Assembly: GCA_035084275.1 (NCBI GenBank)
Contig: CM068742.1
Location: 79,174,001 to 79,238,000, forward strand
DNA length: 64,000 bases
Origin: Hydrolagus colliei
Lineage: Eukaryota
Direction of reading: 5' to 3'
Translations under genes and position numbers: made by a program
In this document: piece by piece, positions 3,167-64,000 of the stretch
Layout of the letters: every line of letters starts with the position of its first letter
How positions within the stretch are numbered: position 1 is the stretch's first letter
The notes under the pieces: model-generated
Told to the model about the DNA's origin: nothing
Database searches by the model: none
Seen by the model: the letters and a program-made list of their open reading frames with translations, nothing else

Positions 3167-3272
3167 AGATTTGAGGAGAATCGGTGTGAGCCTTGCTGGC
3201 CACCAGAAGAAGATCATGAATAACATTCAGGAACTCAGGGTCCAGCTTATGAATGGCAGCATGGCCATGTGA
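3167..3272 (+). CDS. EPHA5: EPHA5-like last coding exon: SAM C-terminus and PDZ-binding tail
   Basis: TTTTCTCAACAG acceptor ending 3166; splices in frame with the previous exon (GA|A = Glu). Encodes [34 protein letters not shown], versus EPHA5 [34 protein letters not shown] (recalled). TGA at 3270-3272. Confidence 0.9.
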
Positions 3273-5339
3273 CTCGGTCCCTACACCTCAAGATACCGCT
3301 CGTCAATTAGCACTTTTTTTTTTCAGAACTGAAACTTGTATTTATTCACTCCTCGGGAGAAAAGGAAAAGGGAAGATCTGTACCGACCTGTAATGGGATT
3401 TTAAAAAATCACCCTCCATGGATCAGCATTTAAATTGCTTCCACTATTTCCATGAATTTCATATTCATCCAAAAACGAGAGGGAAGAATGCGGAAAGAAA
3501 GTTTAAAATGGGGGCATTTCACCTATTTCCCTCCCAAGTGAAGCAGCACTACAAACTTTGCCACTTCACTTGTTTCTAAGAAGGTCTCTACAGCACCTTT
3601 GTCATTTTGTTTTGCAGTCAACGCCTGTGATTCTCCTGTGAAAGGAATTGACTGTCTTTATAAACCAGTTTCCACGGATTCAGAGATAGCAGTAGAACAA
3701 CAATAGTTTACGTACGTTTACTGTATCGAGTCTCAATGACTTACAGTGGTGTATTGAAGAGCAATATATATTTATGTTTACTACTTGGTAGTGATTTCTT
3801 TGTAAATTATAAGTGAGGTTATGACATGTATTTAATAAGTTATAGAAAGTAGTGTATAAAGTCTTCGCTTGAATCAGTCTTGATCAGTATGTATTTATTA
3901 ATTGAAATGGTATCAGATGTAATGAAACCCGTTATTTGAAAACGTATACATTTACTTTGCCCTGGCATTATATGTATATACTGTACAGTTTGCTACTGCG
4001 GGTACAGATTTTTTTCTGTGTAACATCTGCTTAAATGTATGAGTTTCATGTGGGTTTGGCTAAAAAAAATGAGTGCTGCATATTTGTAAAATGTCATGAT
4101 GAGAGTTCCTTAAACTTTAGAGTTTACAACCCTGCTTCCATTTTTTGGAATAGTGTGTGCCACACCAATGTGTTTTTGTAATAGTATTGGTTAAATGGCT
4201 TCAATGCTCAGATACGTGGAATAGAAAGTGCTCACATTCTTCCCCGATATCATGGTGAAAATCAAACAGAGTTGTAGGAAATTGGCTAGGTCACGAATGT
4301 GATGCTCTTTCAATCATCTTTGCCATTATTTGTCAGGCAACACCAACGGCAATTTTTTTTAAAAAAAACAATGTTTTATCTTGAATAGCAGGTGAGCTGC
4401 TTTGACTAACGGTACACAGATACCAAGGAGCCCAATTTAAATATATCTACATAGTAATTTAATTCCAGACCCATGTTGCTTGTATTTGAATAACTGTGTT
4501 ACAGAAATGTAATGGAGTAGAGATGGAAGATGGATAAATTAATGTCTTAAAAGGACATTTATTTAGCTCACATCAACTTAAAGGAAAACTCCAGACCTCT
4601 GCATAAAATATATTTTCAATGTTGCTTGGGGCGCATTGAGCTGCATTTCTGTTTAGCATTATATACTTTTTTTAACGATTATAAAACAGTTTTTGCTGAC
4701 AAAGCACAAGGATGCAATCATCTGGGCAATGTTAGGAGCAAGACAATGATTATCAGCGAGAGTCAGATGCATTTTGCTAACCTATTTAGGAGTTTGAAGC
4801 TGTCTTTGTTTTGCGGAAAGAGATTCAACGAAATAGATCACTTTCTTAAACCAAGAGTCCAAGTGAGCAAGACATGACAGTTTTGCATTTTGTTTGCAAA
4901 TGCACGCAGATCATTCATTTTGTCTTTTGGTGCTTTCTGGGTCTAGGTGCTAAAATCAGCACGAAGCTAATGGTTGACTTGCATCAGACACTTTGACGGA
5001 TTTGTTAGAAACACTTGTAGATCTGCTGTTTGTGCCATAGACTGGCTACAGACTTTCAACCCCAAAGCATCCCCTTTCTATTCCAGGTTCTAAGATAAAA
5101 ATTGTGCTGCAGATCTATAACCTCCAATATTTATTTACTGTATCATTCACTTGTATTGTGACAGGCATGGTGCTTCGTATAAATGTATGGTTAGCCATTT
5201 TACTTTTTGTTTAACGTCTTAATTTGAAGAAAGAGATTATTGTGAAACCAAGGTATTAGATCTGGGCTTTTAGGACTGGGTCACTTTAGTTGAACCTATC
5301 TACACAGAGGAAAGGATTTTGAAAGGGATTTGATAGGCG

Positions 5340-5600
5340 CAGCGGGTTATCGTAGTGTCCTTTCACCCCGAAACATCCCATAATAGTGGGATGAACATCT
5401 CTCTCTCTGCTTGTTGTAATGGTCTCATGAATTGATGTTGATCAATCTCACACCAAGTGGGTTTGGATTTTTAATGGAACTAAACCTCTACCCAGAATTT
5501 GGCACTGAATTTTGGCATTCTCACTCAATGAGGCTGGAGCATGGTTGGTGTGACAAAAACAGAAATCATATTGATGTTATAGGGGAAGAGGGTGCTGAGA
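5340..5600 (+). mobile_element. Old SINE remnant resembling LF-SINE-related shark SINEs, inside the 3' UTR
   Basis: CTTTCACC..., GGGATGAACATCTC..., AATTTGGCACTGAATTTTGGCATTCTCACTCA resemble the LF-SINE-like body (TTGGCACTAATTGGCA); highly diverged. Confidence 0.35.
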
Positions 5601-5722
5601 AAAAGCATACCCCCACCACCTTCGCACACCAATGGATGTCTCACCTTGTTAAGCACAGAATGTTGCTTTTAAAGCCTTAGCAAGCAACTTCCAGAAACAA
5701 GCACATCATTTGAGAAAGCTCA

Positions 5723-5975
5723 AAAAACAAAAGCAAAATACTACAGATGCTGGGAATCTGAAACAAAAACAAAAGTTGCTGTGGAAACTCAGCAGGTCAG
5801 GCAGTATCCATGGAGAAAGGAAAAAGAGTCAACAGAGTTCTAACGAAGGGTTGTAGACCCGAAAAGTTGACTCTTTTTCCTTTCTCCATGGATGCTGTCT
5901 GACCTGTTGAGTTTCCACAGCAACTTTTGTTTTTGTTTCAGATTCCCAGCATCTGTAGTATTTTGTGTTTTGTTT
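5723..5975. mobile_element. Palindromic Penelope-like (inverted pseudo-LTR) short element with 15-bp TSD
   Basis: Arms 5734-5833 and 5866-5965 are reverse complements (97/100). ATTTGAGAAAGCTCA is duplicated at 5708-5722 and 5976-5990. The arm sequence GATGCTG..TGACCTG.TGAGTTT...CCAGCATCTG resembles shark Penelope pLTRs. Confidence 0.8.
5834..5874 (+). ncRNA. Degenerate minimal type I hammerhead ribozyme motif
   Basis: Stem I AGAGTT/GACTCT; core CTAACGA (canonical CTGANGA); stem II GGGT-TGTAG-ACCC; GAAA; AGTT (sibling copies have GAAACGTT). Two core substitutions. Confidence 0.55.
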
Positions 5976-6741
5976 ATTTGAGAAAGCTCACTGGACTCCA
6001 CATGTACTATCTGGCATTCAAAGCTGTGACCATTCAAAGTTGTTAGAACATTGCAGGTATAGAAAAAAATATATTGCTTGAAATTGAACTTAGATTGACT
6101 TAAAAAAAACTATATTCTGAATTCAATAACAATACAATGTACATGTGTGTGGGGGTAGGGAGAATGGGGTGGGGCAGAAGAAGAGGGGAGAATGGAATAT
6201 AGAACCAGACTAATTCACAAGTGAGATGGAGGAGCTAGGATTCATTCTCCGATGCACAGATGAGATTAGGGTGATTGTCCAGATTGGTGTGAAATATCTA
6301 ATTTAACGTTTAAAATTTATTATGCTTAGTTTGACGAGTGCATCTAGAAAAATAAATGGAGGACTATGGTCGTAAGCAATCCCATGTTAATTATTAAAGC
6401 ATTAAGTATCATCACATGGAGCTTTCCTTTAAATTATAGAAATGATTGCAATTATACACCAGCCTGATATTGCACAAAATCTTGCTTATCAGGGTTATAA
6501 GTGATTGACAGTGAATTGTGTGAGAATGTAGAAGGAAGCATAAAATGCATTAGTATTTAGTAATTTGTACTTGGATTCAAACTGTTGAGGAAAATATCAT
6601 TTTCTCATTCAGAACTGAACAATAGGCAACATTTGATGCTGATATTTACTATATAACAACAAATCACATATTAATACTATTAAAAACAAAATATTTGTTT
6701 CAACCATTTACCTGTACTATAATACTAAGTGAAGCTTTCAT

Positions 6742-6867
6742 AATAAAAACACGAGTGTGCTTTATTTATTATTTTAAGGCCAATATCCTGACACTGTCTG
6801 CATTTTGTTTGTGTACATGTTTTTGTAGTGTAAGATATGAAATTTTATATTTTCATAAAAAAATAAA
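6742..6867 (+). promoter_or_regulatory. Candidate polyadenylation signals
   Basis: AATAAA at 6742-6747 and 6862-6867, with TGTA motifs (6812-6833) upstream of the second; a further AATAAA at 6351-6356. Confidence 0.5.
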
Positions 6868-33299: not shown

Positions 33300-33518
33300 A
33301 AATGCAAAATACTGCAGATAAGAACATAAGAAATGCTAGACAAAAAAAGACCAAAGTCCATCTAGTTTACCTTCCTGGCAGTTGCATGCACATATGTCTC
33401 AGCTGCTGGAAATCTGAAACAAATGCAAAGTATGCTGGGAACACTCAGCAGGTCAGGCAGCATCTATGGAGAAAGGAAAGCGGGTCAACGTTTCGGGTTG
33501 ATGACCCTACGTCAGAAT
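33300..33518 (-). mobile_element. Penelope-like short element with hammerhead-like motif, interrupted by a ~80 bp CR1-type tail (~33320-33402)
   Basis: Minus strand reads TTCTGACGTAGGGTCATCAACCCGAAACGTTGAC...GATGCTGCCTGACCTGCTGAGTG. The element end (AAAATACTGCAGAT, 33306-33319) is separated from the rest by AAGAACATAAGAAATG.... Confidence 0.7.
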
Positions 33519-42105: not shown

Positions 42106-42196
42106 CTTGTGTTCACAAAAGTGGGCTCCAGATAACATTGCCTCAAGATTGGGAGATTTCTCTGTTTCAGTCGAAGATCAGTAGAGATTACGAAAG

Positions 42197-42330
42197 CAAA
42201 ACACAAAATACTAGAGATGCTGGAAATCTGAAACTAAAACAGAAGTTGCTGGGGAAACTCAACAGGTCAGGCAGCATCCATGGAGAAAGGAAAAAGAGTC
42301 AACGTTTCGGGTCTATAATTCTGTCAGAAC
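42197..42330 (-). mobile_element. Penelope-like short element (single arm) with 14-bp TSD and degenerate hammerhead
   Basis: Close match to arm 5734-5833. TSD AGAGATTACGAAAG (42183-42196) / AGAGATTAGGAAAG (42331-42344). Minus strand begins GTTCTGACAGAATTATAGACCCGAAACGTTGACTC. Confidence 0.8.
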
Positions 42331-43914
42331 AGAGATTAGGAAAGGTTTAGTTAAGGTGGACATTGAGAGATTGTTTATACTTTATTCTTTATATTGTTCA
42401 TACATTGTTCTCATGATGCATACATGAGAGAGAAGGGAATAGAGAGGGATAATAAAAGAATATGGAGGGGGTTGAGGAGAAAAAAAAATCTGCACAGTCT
42501 AGTTGGGACAAATAGCTTGTTTCTATTGTGGTCTCAGGGAATTACTGGACTCATCACTCACAATGTAAAAACATGTGTGGCAGCAAAAATCAAGCCAACC
42601 AGGAAGCCAGGCTATATAGTTAACACAGTTGAGTTCAGATCCCAAGATGTTATACTATGGCTTTATAGTGCTTAATAGTGTTCAAGCTTAAAAGTGGCAT
42701 ATTCTCTCCGTAAACAAAAGAAGATCACCTGTAAGTCACTCTTTCAACCCCAGTATTTGCTGATTTAGCAGCTCTCAATCCCCAGCATGCACTGAATTAG
42801 TTTATAACAAATTGCCAAATTTCAAACGTGTTCAGTACAAACTCTGTTTTGGCATACAATAGATTTTGCACACTGACCAAAGCTCAAAGCTCTTCAATAT
42901 CTAACAAGAACAAGTCAATGACTTCTAAGCTATTATTCACAGAACAAGATTCACAACAAAGAGAAGTAATGCTGTTGTGCATTCAAATATATGGCTACTG
43001 ATCCAACTCCCTTTTTAGATGAAGCTCGTTCATCATCATTATGTTATTCCGTGTACACAATGTGTCAGGCTGTGCAATTTGTACTTCTCCTCAATTTAGA
43101 GAATGAGCTGTCTTTGTTCACATGTCACAGAACGCTGTAGTTTAGATGTGTGATGAGAAGAATAGATTGATTATTCACCAACTAATTATTCTTGTATTTA
43201 AAGAGCCATTGTCAAGGACGAGAGCCAAAACCTAATACCCCCATTGTGAAGAGCAGCCTTTAACAACAGTGTCAAAGCTGTGATTGCATTATACAGTGGG
43301 CTCTTTAACCTTCAGATCCCTGGAAATATGCCCCAGTGAAAATTCTCAAATAGCAGGTGAAGGGCATTTGCATGTTCATCAAGCCAATAATCCACATGCT
43401 GCAGCGAATGCCAATGGCTTGGTTTCTAGAAAGCATATGGTCTCCCAACATTTTTGACTGTATAAGTTCACTTTTTTTTCACAAAATAAGCCTTTCACAG
43501 AATCTTACCGTAGCACAAAGGGAAGCAATTTAGCCCATCATGCCTATGCTGGCTCTTTAAATAGCGCCAACTAGTCCCATTCCCAATCTCTTTGCCCATA
43601 GCCAAGTAAATTCTTCATTTTTAAGTACCTACCCAATTCCATTTTAAAAGCTATTATCGAATCTGCTTCCAACAGCCTTTCAGATAGTGCATTCTCTACT
43701 TATAAAACCAAGGATCCCATACACTTTTTTAACCACTTTGTCAACTTGTCCTACCACCTTCAAAGATTTGTATATGTGAATTCCCAGGTTTCTCTGTTCC
43801 TGCACCCACTTTAAAATTGTTTGATTTATCTTATATTGCCTCTCCTCATTCTTCCTCCCAAAATGCATTACTTCATACTTGTCTGCATTATGGAGTCCTA
43901 TAACTCAGTGGTTA

Positions 43915-44860
43915 TACGATCGATGTTCTGACAGCATGTCTGTCCGACATCGAATCGTGGACGAGGGACAACGTTTTGCAATTGAACGTGAATAAGACCG
44001 AGGCCCTCCTGATTGGCTCAAGCCAGCGCCTCCGCACATCGGGCGCTGCCAGCCTCAACATCCAAGGCTGCACTCTCCACCTCACAAAGCCAATCAGGAA
44101 CCTCGGCATCATGTTCGATCAAAAACTTTCCTTCCTCCCCCACATCCGCGCCTTGACCGGCACCGCCTATTTCCATCTGCGCAACATTGCCAGGCTCCGC
44201 AACTATCTTACCCCCCGCGCTGCCGAAACACTTGTGCATGCTTACATCACCTCACGGCTGGATTACGGAAATTCTCTCCTAGTTGGCCTCCCCAGTTCCT
44301 CCATTCATAGGCTGCAGGCCATCCGAAACTCTGCAGCCCGTGTACTATCCCGCACCCGCCTCCGTGACCACATAACCCCCACCCTCGCCCATCTCCACTG
44401 GCTCCCCATCCTCCAGAGGATCGAGTTTAAGATCCTCGTCCTCACCTACAAGGCCTTACACGGCCTTGCCCCATCCTACCTAACTGATCTACTCTCCCCC
44501 TACACGCCCACCCGGACCCTCCGTTCAACAGGACTTGGCCTGCTCCAAGCTCCCCGCCCGAACCGCCCCACCATCGGAGGCCGGGCCTTCAGTTTCTCCG
44601 CTCCCACCCTATGGAATGCCATCCCTCAATCCCTCCGTTTCGCCTCTTCCCTTTCCTCTTTCAAGGCCGGTTTGAAGACTTTCCTCTTCGATTGTGCCTT
44701 TTGTTCCACCCCGAACTCTTTTACTTCCCCTTCGTGTTTCACCCCTTCCCAAACACTCCCCTCCCAGCTCGGGTCACACGCCTCTTGTTCAGCGCCTTGG
44801 GACGTCCTCCCGACGTGAAAGGCGCTCTATAAATGTAAATTGTTGTTGTTGTTGTTGTTG
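43915..44860 (+). mobile_element. Young 5'-truncated L2 LINE with open ORF2 C-terminus
   Basis: 280-aa open frame (LQLNVNKTEALLI, RNLGIMFD, ITSRLDYGNSLL, LHWLPI, GGRAFSFSAPTLWN); (TGT)n tail; TSD TGGTTA at 43909-43914 and 44859-44864. Confidence 0.92.
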
Positions 44861-47985: not shown

Positions 47986-50212
47986 ACAACAACAACTTAA
48001 ACTTATAAAGCGCCTTTCACATCGGGAAGACGTCCCAAGGTGCTACACAGGAGGCGTGTGACCCGAGCTGGGAGGGGAATATTCGGGAAGGGGTGAAACA
48101 CGGAGGGGAGGTCAAAAAATTCGGGGGCGGAAACAAAAGGCACGGTCAAAGAGGAAAGTCTTTAAACCGGCCTTGAAAGAGGAAAGGGAAGAAACAAGGT
48201 GGAGGGATTGGGGGATGGAATTCCACAGGATGGGAGCAGAGAAACTGAAGGCCCGGCCTCCTATGGTGGGGCGGTTCGGGCTGAGGGCTTCGAGCAGGCC
48301 AATTCCTGCTGAACGGAGGGTTCGGGTGGGCTTATAGGGGGAGAGTAAATCAGTTAAATAGGGCGGGGCAAGGCCGTGTAAGGCCTTGAAGGTTAGGACG
48401 AGGATCTTTAACTCGATCCTCTTGAGGATGGGGAGCCAGTGGAGACGGGCAAGGGTGGGGGTTATATGGTCGTGGAGGCGGGTGCGGGATAATACATGGG
48501 CTGCAGAGTTTTGGATGACCTGCAGCCTGTGAATAGAGGAGCTGGGGAGGCCGACGAGGAGAAAGTTTCCTTAGTCCAGCCGTGAGGTGATGTACGCGTG
48601 CACGAGTGTTTCGGGAGCATGCGGGGTGAGATAGTTGCGGAGCCTGGCAATGTTGCGTAGGTGGAAATAAGCGGTGCTGGTCAAGGCACGGATGTGGGGG
48701 AGGAAGGAGAGTTTATGGTCGAACGTGATTCCAAGGTTCCTGATTGGCTTTGTGAGGTGGAGCGTACAGCCTTGGAAGTTGAGGCTGGCAGCGCCCGATG
48801 TGCGGAGGTGCTGGCTTGAGCCAATCAGGAGGGCCTCGGTCTTGCTCACGTTCAATTGGAGAAAGTTGTCACTCGTCCAGGGCTCAATGTCGGACAGACA
48901 TGCTGTCAGAACATCGATGGTCTGGGGGTTGAGGGATGAGGCAGAAAGATACAGCTGGGTGTCGTCCGCATACATGTGGAAATTTGCCCCATGTTTGCGG
49001 ATGACATCGCCCAGAGGGAGCGTGTAAATGGTGAAACAGAGGGGGCCGAGGACAGAGCCCTGAGGGACGCCGTGAGAAACTGTGCGGGGGTTTGAGGAGA
49101 AACCGTTGGAAGATACAAAATGTAGGCAATGGGTCAGGTAGGAATGGAACCAGTCAAGGACTGTGCCTTTAAGGTTGAGGTGGGAGGAAGGACGTTGGAG
49201 GAGGATGGTGTGATCGACTGTGTCGAATGCAGCAGACAGGTCAAGGAGGACGAGGAGGCAGAGGGAGCCCTGGTCGCAGGCGGTTAGGATGTCGTTTGTA
49301 ACCATAACGAGGGCAGTTTCCGTGCTGTGAGCAGGGCGGAAACCTGATTGGAGGGGTTCAAGGAGTGAGTGAGGTGAGAGGAAAGAGCAGAGCTGGGAGG
49401 CAACCACTCTGTCATGGACCTTAGATAAAAACGGGAGGTTGGAGATGGGTCGGTAGCTTGATGGCTGCGACGCATCAAGGGAGGGTTTTTTCAGGATAGG
49501 GGTGATGGTGGCTGTTTTAAGGGAGGTAGGGATGGTGCTTGAGGAGAGGGAAAGGTTGATGGTGTCAGAAATGAGCGGGGCCAAAAGGTGGAGCTGGGTG
49601 TGGAGGAGTGGGGTGGTGATGGGGTCCAATGAACACGTGGTGGGTTTCATGGAGGTGATTATTTTTGTGACTGAAGACGGGGAGGTGGGGATGAAAGTAT
49701 GAAAGGGGGGGGGGTGGGTGGGGGTTGAAATAACGGATGGAGGGGCGGAGGTGGAGGAGAGGTGGGGGGAGGAAACCACAGAACGGATTCTCTCTATTTT
49801 GGACTCCAGGAAGTCCAACGTCTCCTAACAACGTTCGTTTGAAGAGAGGATCTGCGAAGCGAGACGGTGGGGGCGGAGGAACTGGTTGGTGGTGGCAAAG
49901 AGGAGGCGGTGGTTGTCCTTCGCTTCCAGGATTATCCTGGAGTAGAAGGCTAATTTGGCGGTGGCTAGGGCGGAGCGGTAAAATTTGATGCGGTCCAGCC
50001 AGATTTGCCGGTGGACCGTGAGGCCAGATTTGAGCCAGGTGCGTTCAGCTGCTCTCACTTGGCTTTTGAGGGAATGGAGGTGAGTTGTGTACCACGGTGA
50101 TGATCGGGAGTGGGAGACGGTTCTGGAGGTGAGGGGGGCCAGGGTGTCGAGGGTAGTGGAGAGGGTGTTATGGAGGGTGGTGGAGGCGGAGGATGGGTCG
50201 GTACAGGAAAAA
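47986..50212 (-). mobile_element. L2 LINE, 5' truncated, with full reverse-transcriptase domain (pseudogenized)
   Basis: ORF 48571-49818: YRPISNLPFLSK, QSGFRPAHSTETAL, LLDLSAAFDTVDH, GVPQGSVLGP, YADDTQLY. Nonsense codon at 48571-48573, frameshifts upstream, (TGT)n tail. Confidence 0.95.
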
Positions 50213-51894
50213 TGCCACAGGCATCAAATGACCAGCTACACCCTGTCTTCCTTTCGGATGAGGTACATGGTGTCGCCTTGTAGCTGAATTGGCTATGGTG
50301 ATATGCTTGGCCATGGAATGTTAGAATTGAACCCACCCTCTATGGTGGTGTCATTCAGTACTCCAGTTCCTGAGTCAAATGGATCCATAGTTTTCCAGGA
50401 CACTGCTAATGAACAGTGCAGCCAGCCTGGCTCATTAGCAGAACTTGAAAGGGCAGACCAGTCACTGGAGGTAGGGAGTCATCCCACTCAGCTCCCATTA
50501 AGACTGCAAGGACAAGCAGCTGGAAAGCTTGCCACACAGTTCTCAATGGCAAGCTGTGCGATTTTAACTGGTTATCCATGGGAATCCCAATACACACTCT
50601 GGGGTCCCCAAGCCAACCTCTACTGAATACTTTCCAGAACTAGAAAAGCAGGGTGCATCCCCCCAGAGAGAGAGTGTGCATTCCATCCAATAAACATCTC
50701 TGGAATTTTCATTTGTAGGCAAAGTGGATGGATCTCTGTTTGGATAATCTTAACGTTCCTCCCAACATGAAAGGCACTATACAAATGTAATTTGGTTGTT
50801 GTTAAGCACGGTGATAGATTTTCACATGTGTTAGGAACATGGCTAACCCCACAAAAGCATGAGACTACAGACAGTAAATATCATTAAGAGTAGGGCATAC
50901 AGTGGGCAGATATTGTGGCTTTCAAGTCGTTTAAGTGCACTTTCAATTATTGAACACTGCAAAATATAATCTGGAACCAGGAAAAAAAACTCTCCCTGCC
51001 TAAGGCTCACAAAACAGAATGGCCTCTTTCTATTCTGTGGCTTCTTTGGTTTTGCGTAAAGAAAGTAACTCAGCAACTGTAATCCAAGGGCACCTTCTGA
51101 ATTAAAAGTATTTTCAATTCTCCTGAACAGACAAAGATGAGACTTAACAGTTGTGTGAAATTCAATCTTGGGAAAAGAAAAGATCTGAAAAGGGAAGAAA
51201 CTTAGCTTTTGGAAAAATAAATCGAGCTGCTGCTCAAAAGATGGTGTTTAAGAGGAAAGAGAGAATAAAAGTATAGCTAAGTAGAAAAGAAACGAAGGCA
51301 GAATGGAAATGCAAAAAATATATATACTGATCACTAAAGAGGAAAAAATAATCTAAGATAAAAAATATATTTAGTCTCTACTTAGAATTCTATATCTCTG
51401 GAATGCTTTGAATTTCTGATGGATTATGTGACTTTGTGAGTGACTGAATTAACAGTTTGTGAATCTCCAGGGATTGTGTTCCAATCATTGCTTGGGGGTG
51501 TTAATTAAATTCAATGGAAGCTATTTGCAAGTGAAGAAAAAGTAATTCCATCCTTCGGAAATCATTTTCTCAGAAAACAGCAACAACAAAAGTGAATTTG
51601 TTTTTCTTTCATATTACATTTTTCTGCAGTGCTAAAAAAAAATCTTGTTGCCTTATGCTCATACACCTGCCCTAGTTGGATAGGTCCATTGACATTAATT
51701 CCAGGGGAACAATTGACACAGTGAAATTTCATTGAAGACATCAAATGTCACAGGTTGCTGTTTAATGTGAGGTTTTGGATAAAGTGTAGGCACAGATATA
51801 ACAATAATCCTTACAATTGGTATAATGCTTTTCAAGTTGGGAAAATGTTCCAAAGTGCTTCACAGGATGTACTATGAAGCACTTACTCCACACT

Positions 51895-62981: not shown

Positions 62982-64000
62982 AAGTTGGTAAGGAGGCAGA
63001 GGGCATGGGTGATGTACTGAATGAGTACTTTGTCGCTGTCTTCACAAGAGAAGAGGATGCAGCCAATGCTACAGTATTGAAGGAGAGGGTAGAAGAAATG
63101 GATAGGATTAGTAATAAATAGAGCGGAAATACTAAAAAGGTTGACGGCGCTCAAGGTAGATAAGTCACCCAGTCCCGATGGGATGCATTCTAGGTTACTA
63201 AGGGAAGTGTGGGAGCAAATAGCAGAGACTCTGGCCACAATCTTTCAATCTTCCTTGGACACAGGAGTGGTGCCAGAGGACTGGAAGGTTGCTAATGTTA
63301 CTCCTCTGTATAAAAAGGGGCAGAAGGACGAACCTGGGAACTACAGGCCAGTCAGTCTTACGTCAGTAGTGGGCAAACTTCTAGATCTTCACTTAGAAAG
63401 ATATAGGCTAATAAAGGACAGCCAGCATAGATTTGTTAAAGGCAAATCTTGCCTTACAAATCTAATAGAATTTTTCGATGAGGTAACGGAATGGGTGGAC
63501 GAGGGCAGCGCAGTTGATGCAGTTTACATGGATTTTCAAAAGACATTTGACAAAGTGCCACATGAGAGGCTTAGTAGGAAAGTAGCGGCCCACGCCGTTA
63601 AAGGAACAGTGGCAGCATGGATCCACAACTGGCTGTAAGACAGAAAGCAGAGAGTTGTGGTGAGCAGCTGTTTTTCAGATTAGAGGGAAGTGTGCAGTGA
63701 TCACACCCACTTTTTGGGACCACTATTCTTCCGAATATATATTAATGATCTGGACTTGGGTATAGGGAGCACAGTTTCCAAGTTTGCAGATGATACTAAG
63801 TTAGGAAGAAGAGTAAATAGTGAGGAGGATAGTAACCATCTACAAGAAGATTTAGATAAAATGGTAAAGTGGGCAGACACATGGCAGATGAAGTTTAATG
63901 CAGAGAAGTGTGAGGTGTTACGTTTTGGGAGAAGAAATGAGGGGAGGCAATATAGGCTAGATGGTACCATTTTAAGGGGTGTGAGGGGACAGAGAGCCTG
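62982..64000 (+). mobile_element. CR1 LINE ORF2 reverse-transcriptase region (decayed, runs off the window)
   Basis: LNEYFVAVFT, KSPSPDGMH, PEDWKVANVTPLYKKG, NYRPVSLTSVVGK, SCLTNLIEFF, VYMDFQKTFDKVPH, FADDTKLG; in-frame stops and deletions. Confidence 0.93.

Follow-up and report, generated by a model that had tools for sequence, protein, structure and literature searches.

Cervera and de la Pena (2014, PMC4209133) described minimal hammerhead ribozymes (min-HHRs) in the pseudo-LTRs of metazoan Penelope-like elements, where most of them are single and dispersed. According to the sections of that paper cited here, they share an extra base after A9, a G10.1-C11.1 pair and a palindromic 15.2-16.2 segment; the single motif gave no cleavage and dimers gave low cleavage only, and dimer cleavage is also covered in PMC6765202. 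The hosts named in those sections are fish, coelacanth, Xenopus and reptiles, with no cartilaginous fishes among them. A literature search combining Penelope hammerheads with sharks returned 'shark' only as the name of a shape, one on purifying selection of such hammerheads in untranslated regions yielded only a plant review, and a 2026 preprint describes, in the part cited here, related tandem elements in one cartilaginous fish (10.64898/2026.07.22.740005).

Penelope-like insertions have a recognisable layout. An inverted, 5'-truncated copy next to the element's 5' end is described by Craig et al. 2021 (PMC8557442), who call the function of the ribozyme unclear, and inverted pLTRs flanked by 8-10-bp duplications are described for endonuclease-bearing Penelope elements, with rotifer examples, by Arkhipova et al. 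2013 (PMC3846280). In the Poseidon element of Anolis carolinensis, hammerhead cleavage requires the element's own protein (Frangieh et al. 2024, PMC11167929). The sections cited from that study report that uncut RNA is the main insertion template, that insertion in vitro can do without cleavage, and that RNA-seq reads neither begin nor end at the cut site. A different kind of hammerhead, discontinuous, of type III and with a very long helix I, lies in the 3' UTRs of Clec2 genes, is found mammal-wide and is thought to have been co-opted (PMC6155905, in the part cited).

Here we describe a 253-bp insertion (5723-5975) in a 64-kb window, by which we mean the whole stretch of DNA analysed. The insertion combines a hammerhead motif and a 110-bp inverted arm with a 15-bp target-site duplication, whose left copy (5708-5722, + strand) is identical to the right one (5976-5990, + strand). 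These are the only two occurrences of the 15-mer in the window, and the duplication had gone unmentioned in the first-pass annotation. The left arm (5723-5833, - strand) is an inverted, 5'-truncated copy of the element's 3' part and contains no hammerhead core; the right arm (5866-5975, + strand) is the forward 3' part and is 93% like a sibling copy at 42194-42318. Positions 5724-5833 are 94% complementary to 5866-5975, with seven mismatches, four of them at the outer end. At 5782 and 5917 the arms share a base that is absent from 96-99% of the family depth, and this base must therefore predate the insertion or have been copied between the arms.

This is the Penelope-type layout, with an inverted 5'-truncated copy adjoining the 5' end and the unit enclosed in a target-site duplication, as in the inverted pLTR insertions of the cited parts of PMC3846280 and PMC8557442. 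The locus differs from those in that the forward element is only about 140 bp long and has no ORF, and in that its duplication is 15 bp rather than the 8-10 bp of the rotifer examples. The insertion is likely the truncated end of a Penelope-like retroelement, an assignment made on architecture because no reverse-transcriptase ORF is linked to any of the three short copies in the window. Compared with Poseidon, as presented in the cited sections of PMC11167929, the hammerhead likewise lies roughly 100 nt upstream of the genomic 3' end, and an uncut template fits the forward piece; the preferred Poseidon cut motif ATT also starts the duplication here, a weak likeness in AT-rich DNA. Unlike Poseidon, this element lacks both an ORF and a start codon at stem II.

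The motif, identified by sequence, folding and a descriptor search, is of the minimal type I architecture of PMC4209133 and lies on the + strand at 5834-5874 as first described, its family part being 5836-5872. The 5' strand reads AGAGTT (5834-5839), CTAACGA (5840-5846), A (5847) and GGGT (5848-5851), followed by TGTAG, and the 3' strand reads ACCC (5857-5860), GAAA (5861-5864), A (5865), GTT (5866-5868) and GACTCT (5869-5874); letters, coordinates and anatomy are all as the first-pass annotation wrote them. The core box C3-A9 spans 5840-5846, with C3 at 5840, position 5 at 5842 and A9 at 5846, and is followed by an extra A (5847). Stem II has 4 bp (5848-5851/5857-5860), G5848-C5860 forming the G10.1-C11.1 pair. 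The second core box, G12-A15.1, spans 5861-5864; position 15.2 is A5865, and the cleavage triplet GUU (5866-5868, G16.2-U16.1-U17) places the predicted cut at 5868/5869. Two lesions are present, a G5>A core substitution at 5842 and, at 5865, a 15.2 C>A substitution that breaks the ACGT dimer palindrome. Stem I is 4 bp long (5836-5839/5869-5872), or 6 bp (5834-5839/5869-5874) when two outer pairs are counted. The earlier reading of a 6-bp stem stands as far as the letters pair, but the dinucleotide at 5834-5835 that provides the outer two pairs is probably junction-derived rather than family sequence, since neither sibling has it and the loose contig ends before 5836 (94 in run X4, 85 in run X6) are heterogeneous, agreeing at only 0.42-0.43 and tending to end in CCCC. 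Positions 5834-5838 are the reverse complement of 5870-5874. AGAGT also appears twice within 5825-5838 (5825-5829 and 5834-5838), and the second occurrence may reflect a brief extra template switch at the junction.

A relaxed descriptor, which allows up to two core mismatches and requires a 4-bp stem I, finds this motif as its sole match on both strands of the 64 kb, with one core mismatch, and gives no match in eight simulated windows of the same composition. The 5836-5872 copy has ten of the 11 fixed core positions of the min-HHR, the exception being A in place of G5, and with A5865-G5866 it lacks the palindromic 15.2-16.2 segment from which a dimer helix III would form. The extra unpaired base after A9 and the G10.1-C11.1 pair are present in all three window copies. 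The family thus shares with the min-HHRs of the cited part of PMC4209133 its type I form, the absence of helix III, the extra base between A9 and G10.1 and the G10.1-C11.1 pair, and its majority sequence also has the palindrome and occurs mostly as single, dispersed, truncated copies; the insertion copy differs in G5>A, the broken palindrome and an inverted arm predicted to occlude the motif. No hammerhead covariance model in Rfam matched at E<=5 in the window or at E<=10 in 5834-5895. Folded alone, the 41-mer gives pairing probabilities of 0.50-1.0 for stem I and 0.98-1.0 for stem II, at an unremarkable folding energy (MFE z-score -1.9; nine of 200 shuffles equally stable). A strict two-box pattern was set aside: it matched five times against 5.97 expected, and none of its matches was a family copy. 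The 5836-5872 segment is a minimal hammerhead of the Penelope kind, most likely a dead one; G5A serves as the inactive hammerhead control in the cited part of PMC4075628.

Both lesions are private to this copy. The claim that G5 and the palindrome are intact in sibling copies is borne out, as both siblings have G5 and C15.2, and so does the family majority, which excludes the possibility that the substitutions belong to the family consensus. Family depth was obtained from contigs of four DNA runs aligned to 4700-5895 at 80% likeness, and is not a copy number. By this measure position 5842 is G in 98.5, 98.2, 99.0 and 99.7% of the depth in the four runs, and position 5865 is C in 86.2, 86.6, 90.4 and 91.1%, with T, presumably by CpG decay, in 8.2-12.5%; the palindrome C is lost in 9-14% of the depth overall. 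The family majority carries the min-HHR core boxes, and no other core position differs at the 10% threshold. One variant, 5839 T>C (14-29% of the depth), converts a U-G pair of stem I to C-G and is compatible with the structure.

The family is a high-copy one: summed contig depth reaches the millions over the element, compared with 58 on the unique flank (run X4). Of the three copies in the window, the relaxed descriptor still recognises the insertion copy alone. The closer sibling (42191-42330, - strand) has its own 8-bp target-site duplication (42183-42190/42331-42338), is 93% like over 125 bp and keeps G5 and ACGT, while its G8-A9 region and stem II are broken. The more distant one (about 33400-33518, - strand; 81%) also keeps G5 and ACGT, has A9>U and a short stem I, and shows no clear target-site duplication. 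A scan for family copies with a tail motif outside the core found none in viral contigs; its single metagenome match, in unrelated GC-rich sequence, was dropped as chance.

The insertion is present in a second sample with the same organism code and at the matching site in a related organism, organism B, with contigs that break inside the repeat and so stop short of 5842 and 5865. The second-sample contig (4700-5762) has no difference from the window. The organism B contig covers 5635-5756 and so extends 34 letters into the left arm, which indicates that the two organisms share the insertion; its flank differs by 11 substitutions in 595 aligned letters (about 2%) and a 14-bp indel. In runs X6, X7 and X10 the uncovered parts carry no information on whether the insertion is absent. 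At 5201-5202, organism B and run X7 have 14 extra bases, which could be a deletion in the window lineage or an insertion in theirs.

Upstream of the insertion lie two coding exons on the + strand. The penultimate coding exon (1834-1989), bounded by AG/GT and with an open frame, encodes the first part of a SAM domain, and the last (3167-3272) continues it in matching splice phase to a stop codon, TGA, at 3270-3272, where the domain ends. The best PDB match is EphA5 for both exons (E 9.6e-12 and 4.6e-10), followed closely by an EphA6 fusion (3.4e-11 and 1.3e-9). With EphA5 best and EphA6 close behind among solved structures, the label 'EPHA5-like' is a fair one, and it makes the motif sense-oriented. 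A 3' UTR is predicted from 3273 to 6867 (+ strand), its end being uncertain, with AATAAA at 6351, 6742 and 6862. AATAAA or ATTAAA does not occur on the + strand of 3273-6350, against nine occurrences on the - strand (4.8 expected, P 0.006); weaker poly(A)-signal variants such as TATAAA do occur on the + strand before 6351. The motif lies 2.6 kb beyond the stop codon of the EPHA5-like gene and before the first AATAAA (6351), and is therefore predicted to fall inside the 3' UTR of the EPHA5-like mRNA. The first-pass description of a motif in sense orientation to the mRNA thus holds for the orientation, whereas its place in the mRNA is a prediction. Both sibling copies are antisense to the gene, 27-36 kb farther downstream.

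The inverted arm changes what this hammerhead can be expected to do. Helices I and II form in isolation, and in a fold of 5834-5990, without the arm, stem I has a probability of 0.47-0.96; helix I is predicted to be lost once the arm is in the transcript, its probability falling to 0.0000 in the whole element (folding energy -195 kcal/mol) and to 0.0001 in a nascent transcript ending at 5876, according to an equilibrium model without protein. Forcing the hammerhead fold with the arm present would cost 11.4 kcal/mol in the same model. By this prediction the arm ties up the triplet along with the 3' strand of stem I independently of the core sequence, and the ribozyme fold would be out of reach for this copy even if its lesions were repaired. 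Neither lesioned base enters the competition between arm and hammerhead, which suggests that the block predates the lesions. Among the three family copies in the window, none offers a same-strand partner for dimerisation. Over the hairpin, Rfam gave matches to two microRNAs, mir-2131 (40.6 bits, cut-off 92) and MIR1507 (37.3 bits, cut-off 73); both reflect the inverted repeat and were rejected.

We propose, with a probability of about 0.8, that the locus records the neutral decay of a hammerhead predicted to have been unfoldable since its insertion, within a truncated, inverted, Penelope-like insertion flanked by a 15-bp duplication. Reverse transcription of uncut element RNA at a staggered break would have produced the forward piece, which extends from the 3' end as far as stem I. 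Template switching would then have added a second, shorter copy in the opposite orientation, the joint being made through a 2-nt filler or a short microhomology. In the host transcript the arm, being made first, would pair into a 110-bp hairpin that takes up the triplet and stem I's 3' strand, and no cleavage would follow. Free of constraint, the copy would have gathered about 5-8 substitutions, two of them in the unpaired spacer. Neutral decay is favoured because the fold is occluded by the arm, no partner exists in cis, the siblings are lesioned as well, and variation at G5 in the family is at the level of non-core sites (non-majority depth 0.3-1.8%, the same size as the 0.3-3.8% of two non-core arm sites). 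It also fits the published behaviour of these ribozymes, since single minimal hammerheads did not cleave in the cited part of PMC4209133, and Poseidon needed its protein and used an uncut template in that of PMC11167929. Speaking against it are a small excess of hits in the core, an arm end 3 nt from the cut and, among the records listed, four from other copies whose junction falls within 6-7 letters of this one.

The excess of core hits bears on the suggestion, made in the first-pass annotation, that the lesions were selected. An intact hammerhead, assisted by protein or by dimerisation, would have severed the poly(A) tail from the EPHA5-like mRNA at a rate high enough to have consequences, and selection would have favoured alleles carrying G5>A and the disrupted palindrome. 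Consistent with such a history, the motif is sense-oriented inside a predicted 3' UTR, G5A inactivates hammerheads (PMC4075628, in the part cited) and a hammerhead has been described in mammalian Clec2 3' UTRs, which share with this locus a sense-oriented motif in a 3' UTR, here predicted. The Clec2 ribozyme is otherwise a poor guide, for the copy described here is of type I, minimal, lesioned (G5>A) and predicted not to fold, and so does not resemble the co-opted kind as the cited part of PMC6155905 presents it. Private substitutions number 5-8 (5805, 5842, 5865, 5898, 5907, the shared base at 5782/5917 and one or two outer-end events), and two of them fall in the 13 core positions of the 253 (P 0.022-0.057), a weak excess identified post hoc and calculated from arms in which homogenisation, if it occurs, may have hidden some mutations. 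For two hits placed in the 32-nt spacer, the probability that both strike the core or the palindrome is 0.11, and that both strike the core or the stems, 0.51. Selection has to contend with an arm predicted to occlude the motif regardless of its core, with the lack of a partner copy in cis and with core lesions in both antisense siblings. Moreover, one lesion would have been enough, so that the second brings no gain, and if the insertion were harmful its loss would be the simpler outcome, but it is found in a second sample and in a related organism. Taken together the evidence leans against selected inactivation, which we consider distinctly unlikely. The insertion may instead matter through its 110-bp double-stranded hairpin, acting on editing, small RNAs, export or mRNA stability, with the hammerhead a mere passenger in the loop. 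Effects of inverted repeats in 3' UTRs are known from work on mammalian inverted Alu elements, and a hairpin of this length in a predicted 3' UTR could possibly undergo editing or give rise to small RNAs. The complementarity of the arms, their predicted stability and their retention in a second sample and a related organism agree with such a role, but three internal arm mismatches have accumulated without compensation and the two organisms differ by too little in the flank to demonstrate conservation; as the explanation of the locus we regard it as very improbable. It is extremely improbable that the hammerhead is a fortuitous resemblance within the loop of some unrelated palindromic repeat: the missing Rfam match, the weak folding z-score and the lack of an attached reverse transcriptase would suit it, but the simulated windows gave no match, the family majority has every core base together with the extra base after A9, the G10.1-C11.1 pair and the palindrome, and the 5839 variant turns a U-G pair of stem I into C-G.

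It had also been proposed that ribozyme processing of the template RNA may be recorded at the inversion junction, where the inverted arm begins exactly at the GUU triplet. Pairing does start at 5866, but the scissile bond lies at 5868/5869, so that the arm reaches 3 nt inside the would-be 5' product: a 3' cleavage product would start at 5869, and the arm continues as the exact complement of 5868, 5867 and 5866; it stops 3 nt upstream of the scissile bond, at the midpoint of the family palindrome. The arm thus includes G16.2-U16.1-U17, and the forward piece runs unbroken across 5868/5869, joining the 5' and 3' parts of the ribozyme, which means that its template was uncut or rejoined. The proposal could be kept if a 3' product beginning at 5869 had been the template of the arm and 5831-5835, the five bases that follow, were filler, but the match of 5831-5833 to the complement of 5866-5868 is a 1-in-64 event for filler. 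Family contigs of the four runs contain at least 11 other inverted joints from arm to forward piece. All 11 forward skips among the joints listed (15 of 72, with very short skips and joints near 5834 under-reported) have arm ends at 5753-5799, 34-80 nt away, and forward starts at 5836-5862, the visible forward starts being limited by the aligned stretch. Among the records listed, four, drawn from three runs, span a joint that is no more than 6-7 letters from the insertion's own, which shows that junctions near the ribozyme recur and, with an arm end so close to the predicted cut and a joint table blind to very short skips, leaves processing some room. The anole element, in the cited sections of PMC11167929, shows no RNA ends at the cut site and inserts without needing cleavage. 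The junction probably does not record cleavage, and copying from a cleaved product is quite improbable. A broader proposal treats the hammerhead both as a landmark of Penelope integration and as a target of host selection: copies would start at stem I and some arms would end at the triplet because the ribozyme, folded or cut, halts or diverts reverse transcriptase, and in this lineage sense copies in mRNAs would be kept only when silenced, here by the arm and two lesions. If true, this would be the first genome-scale readout of the in vivo action of these ribozymes; such a role could be tested from genomes alone if, across the family, junctions clustered at the cut site or intact motifs in UTRs favoured one strand. 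A single locus can show neither clustering nor strand bias, the evidence here leans against both, and we think the proposal unlikely. On the preferred reading of neutral decay, the insertion is a single decayed member of a high-copy family, and both its type of ribozyme and its inverted layout have been published before.

The points at which copies start show a pattern of their own. The forward piece begins at 5836 in the insertion and at the equivalent of 5837 in the 42-kb sibling, where the duplication fixes it, and likeness begins at the equivalent of 5838 in the 33-kb sibling; in all three window copies the start, or the start of likeness, therefore falls no more than 3 nt from the 5' strand of stem I. 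Among the joints listed, two of the 11 skips and one further entry restart at 5836. A fixed 5' boundary, or a stop of reverse transcription at the base of the ribozyme, is possible, but three copies are too few to settle it. Were copies found genome-wide to start at the 5' strand of stem I and not at the cut site, a short non-autonomous unit or a reverse-transcription stop would be indicated. A 36-fold step in contig depth at 5837-5839 was set aside as proof of a family boundary, as short contigs may clip at private bases. In a Drosophila virilis element, according to the cited part of PMC4209133, an intron ends at helix I. A longer form of the family, with CCCC before 5836, would read as pyrimidines followed by AG before the core, which is splice-acceptor-like, if speculatively so.

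Elsewhere in the window, ten tRNA-like Rfam matches (23.7-48.5 bits) are scattered over 8340-59734, several within a dispersed repeat family, and are likely the heads of tRNA-derived SINEs. Broken reverse-transcriptase-like frames, of LINE type by eye, lie at 43904-44818 (+), 48112-50223 (-) and 63093-63638 (+), the first two forming a 797-bp inverted pair at 89%.
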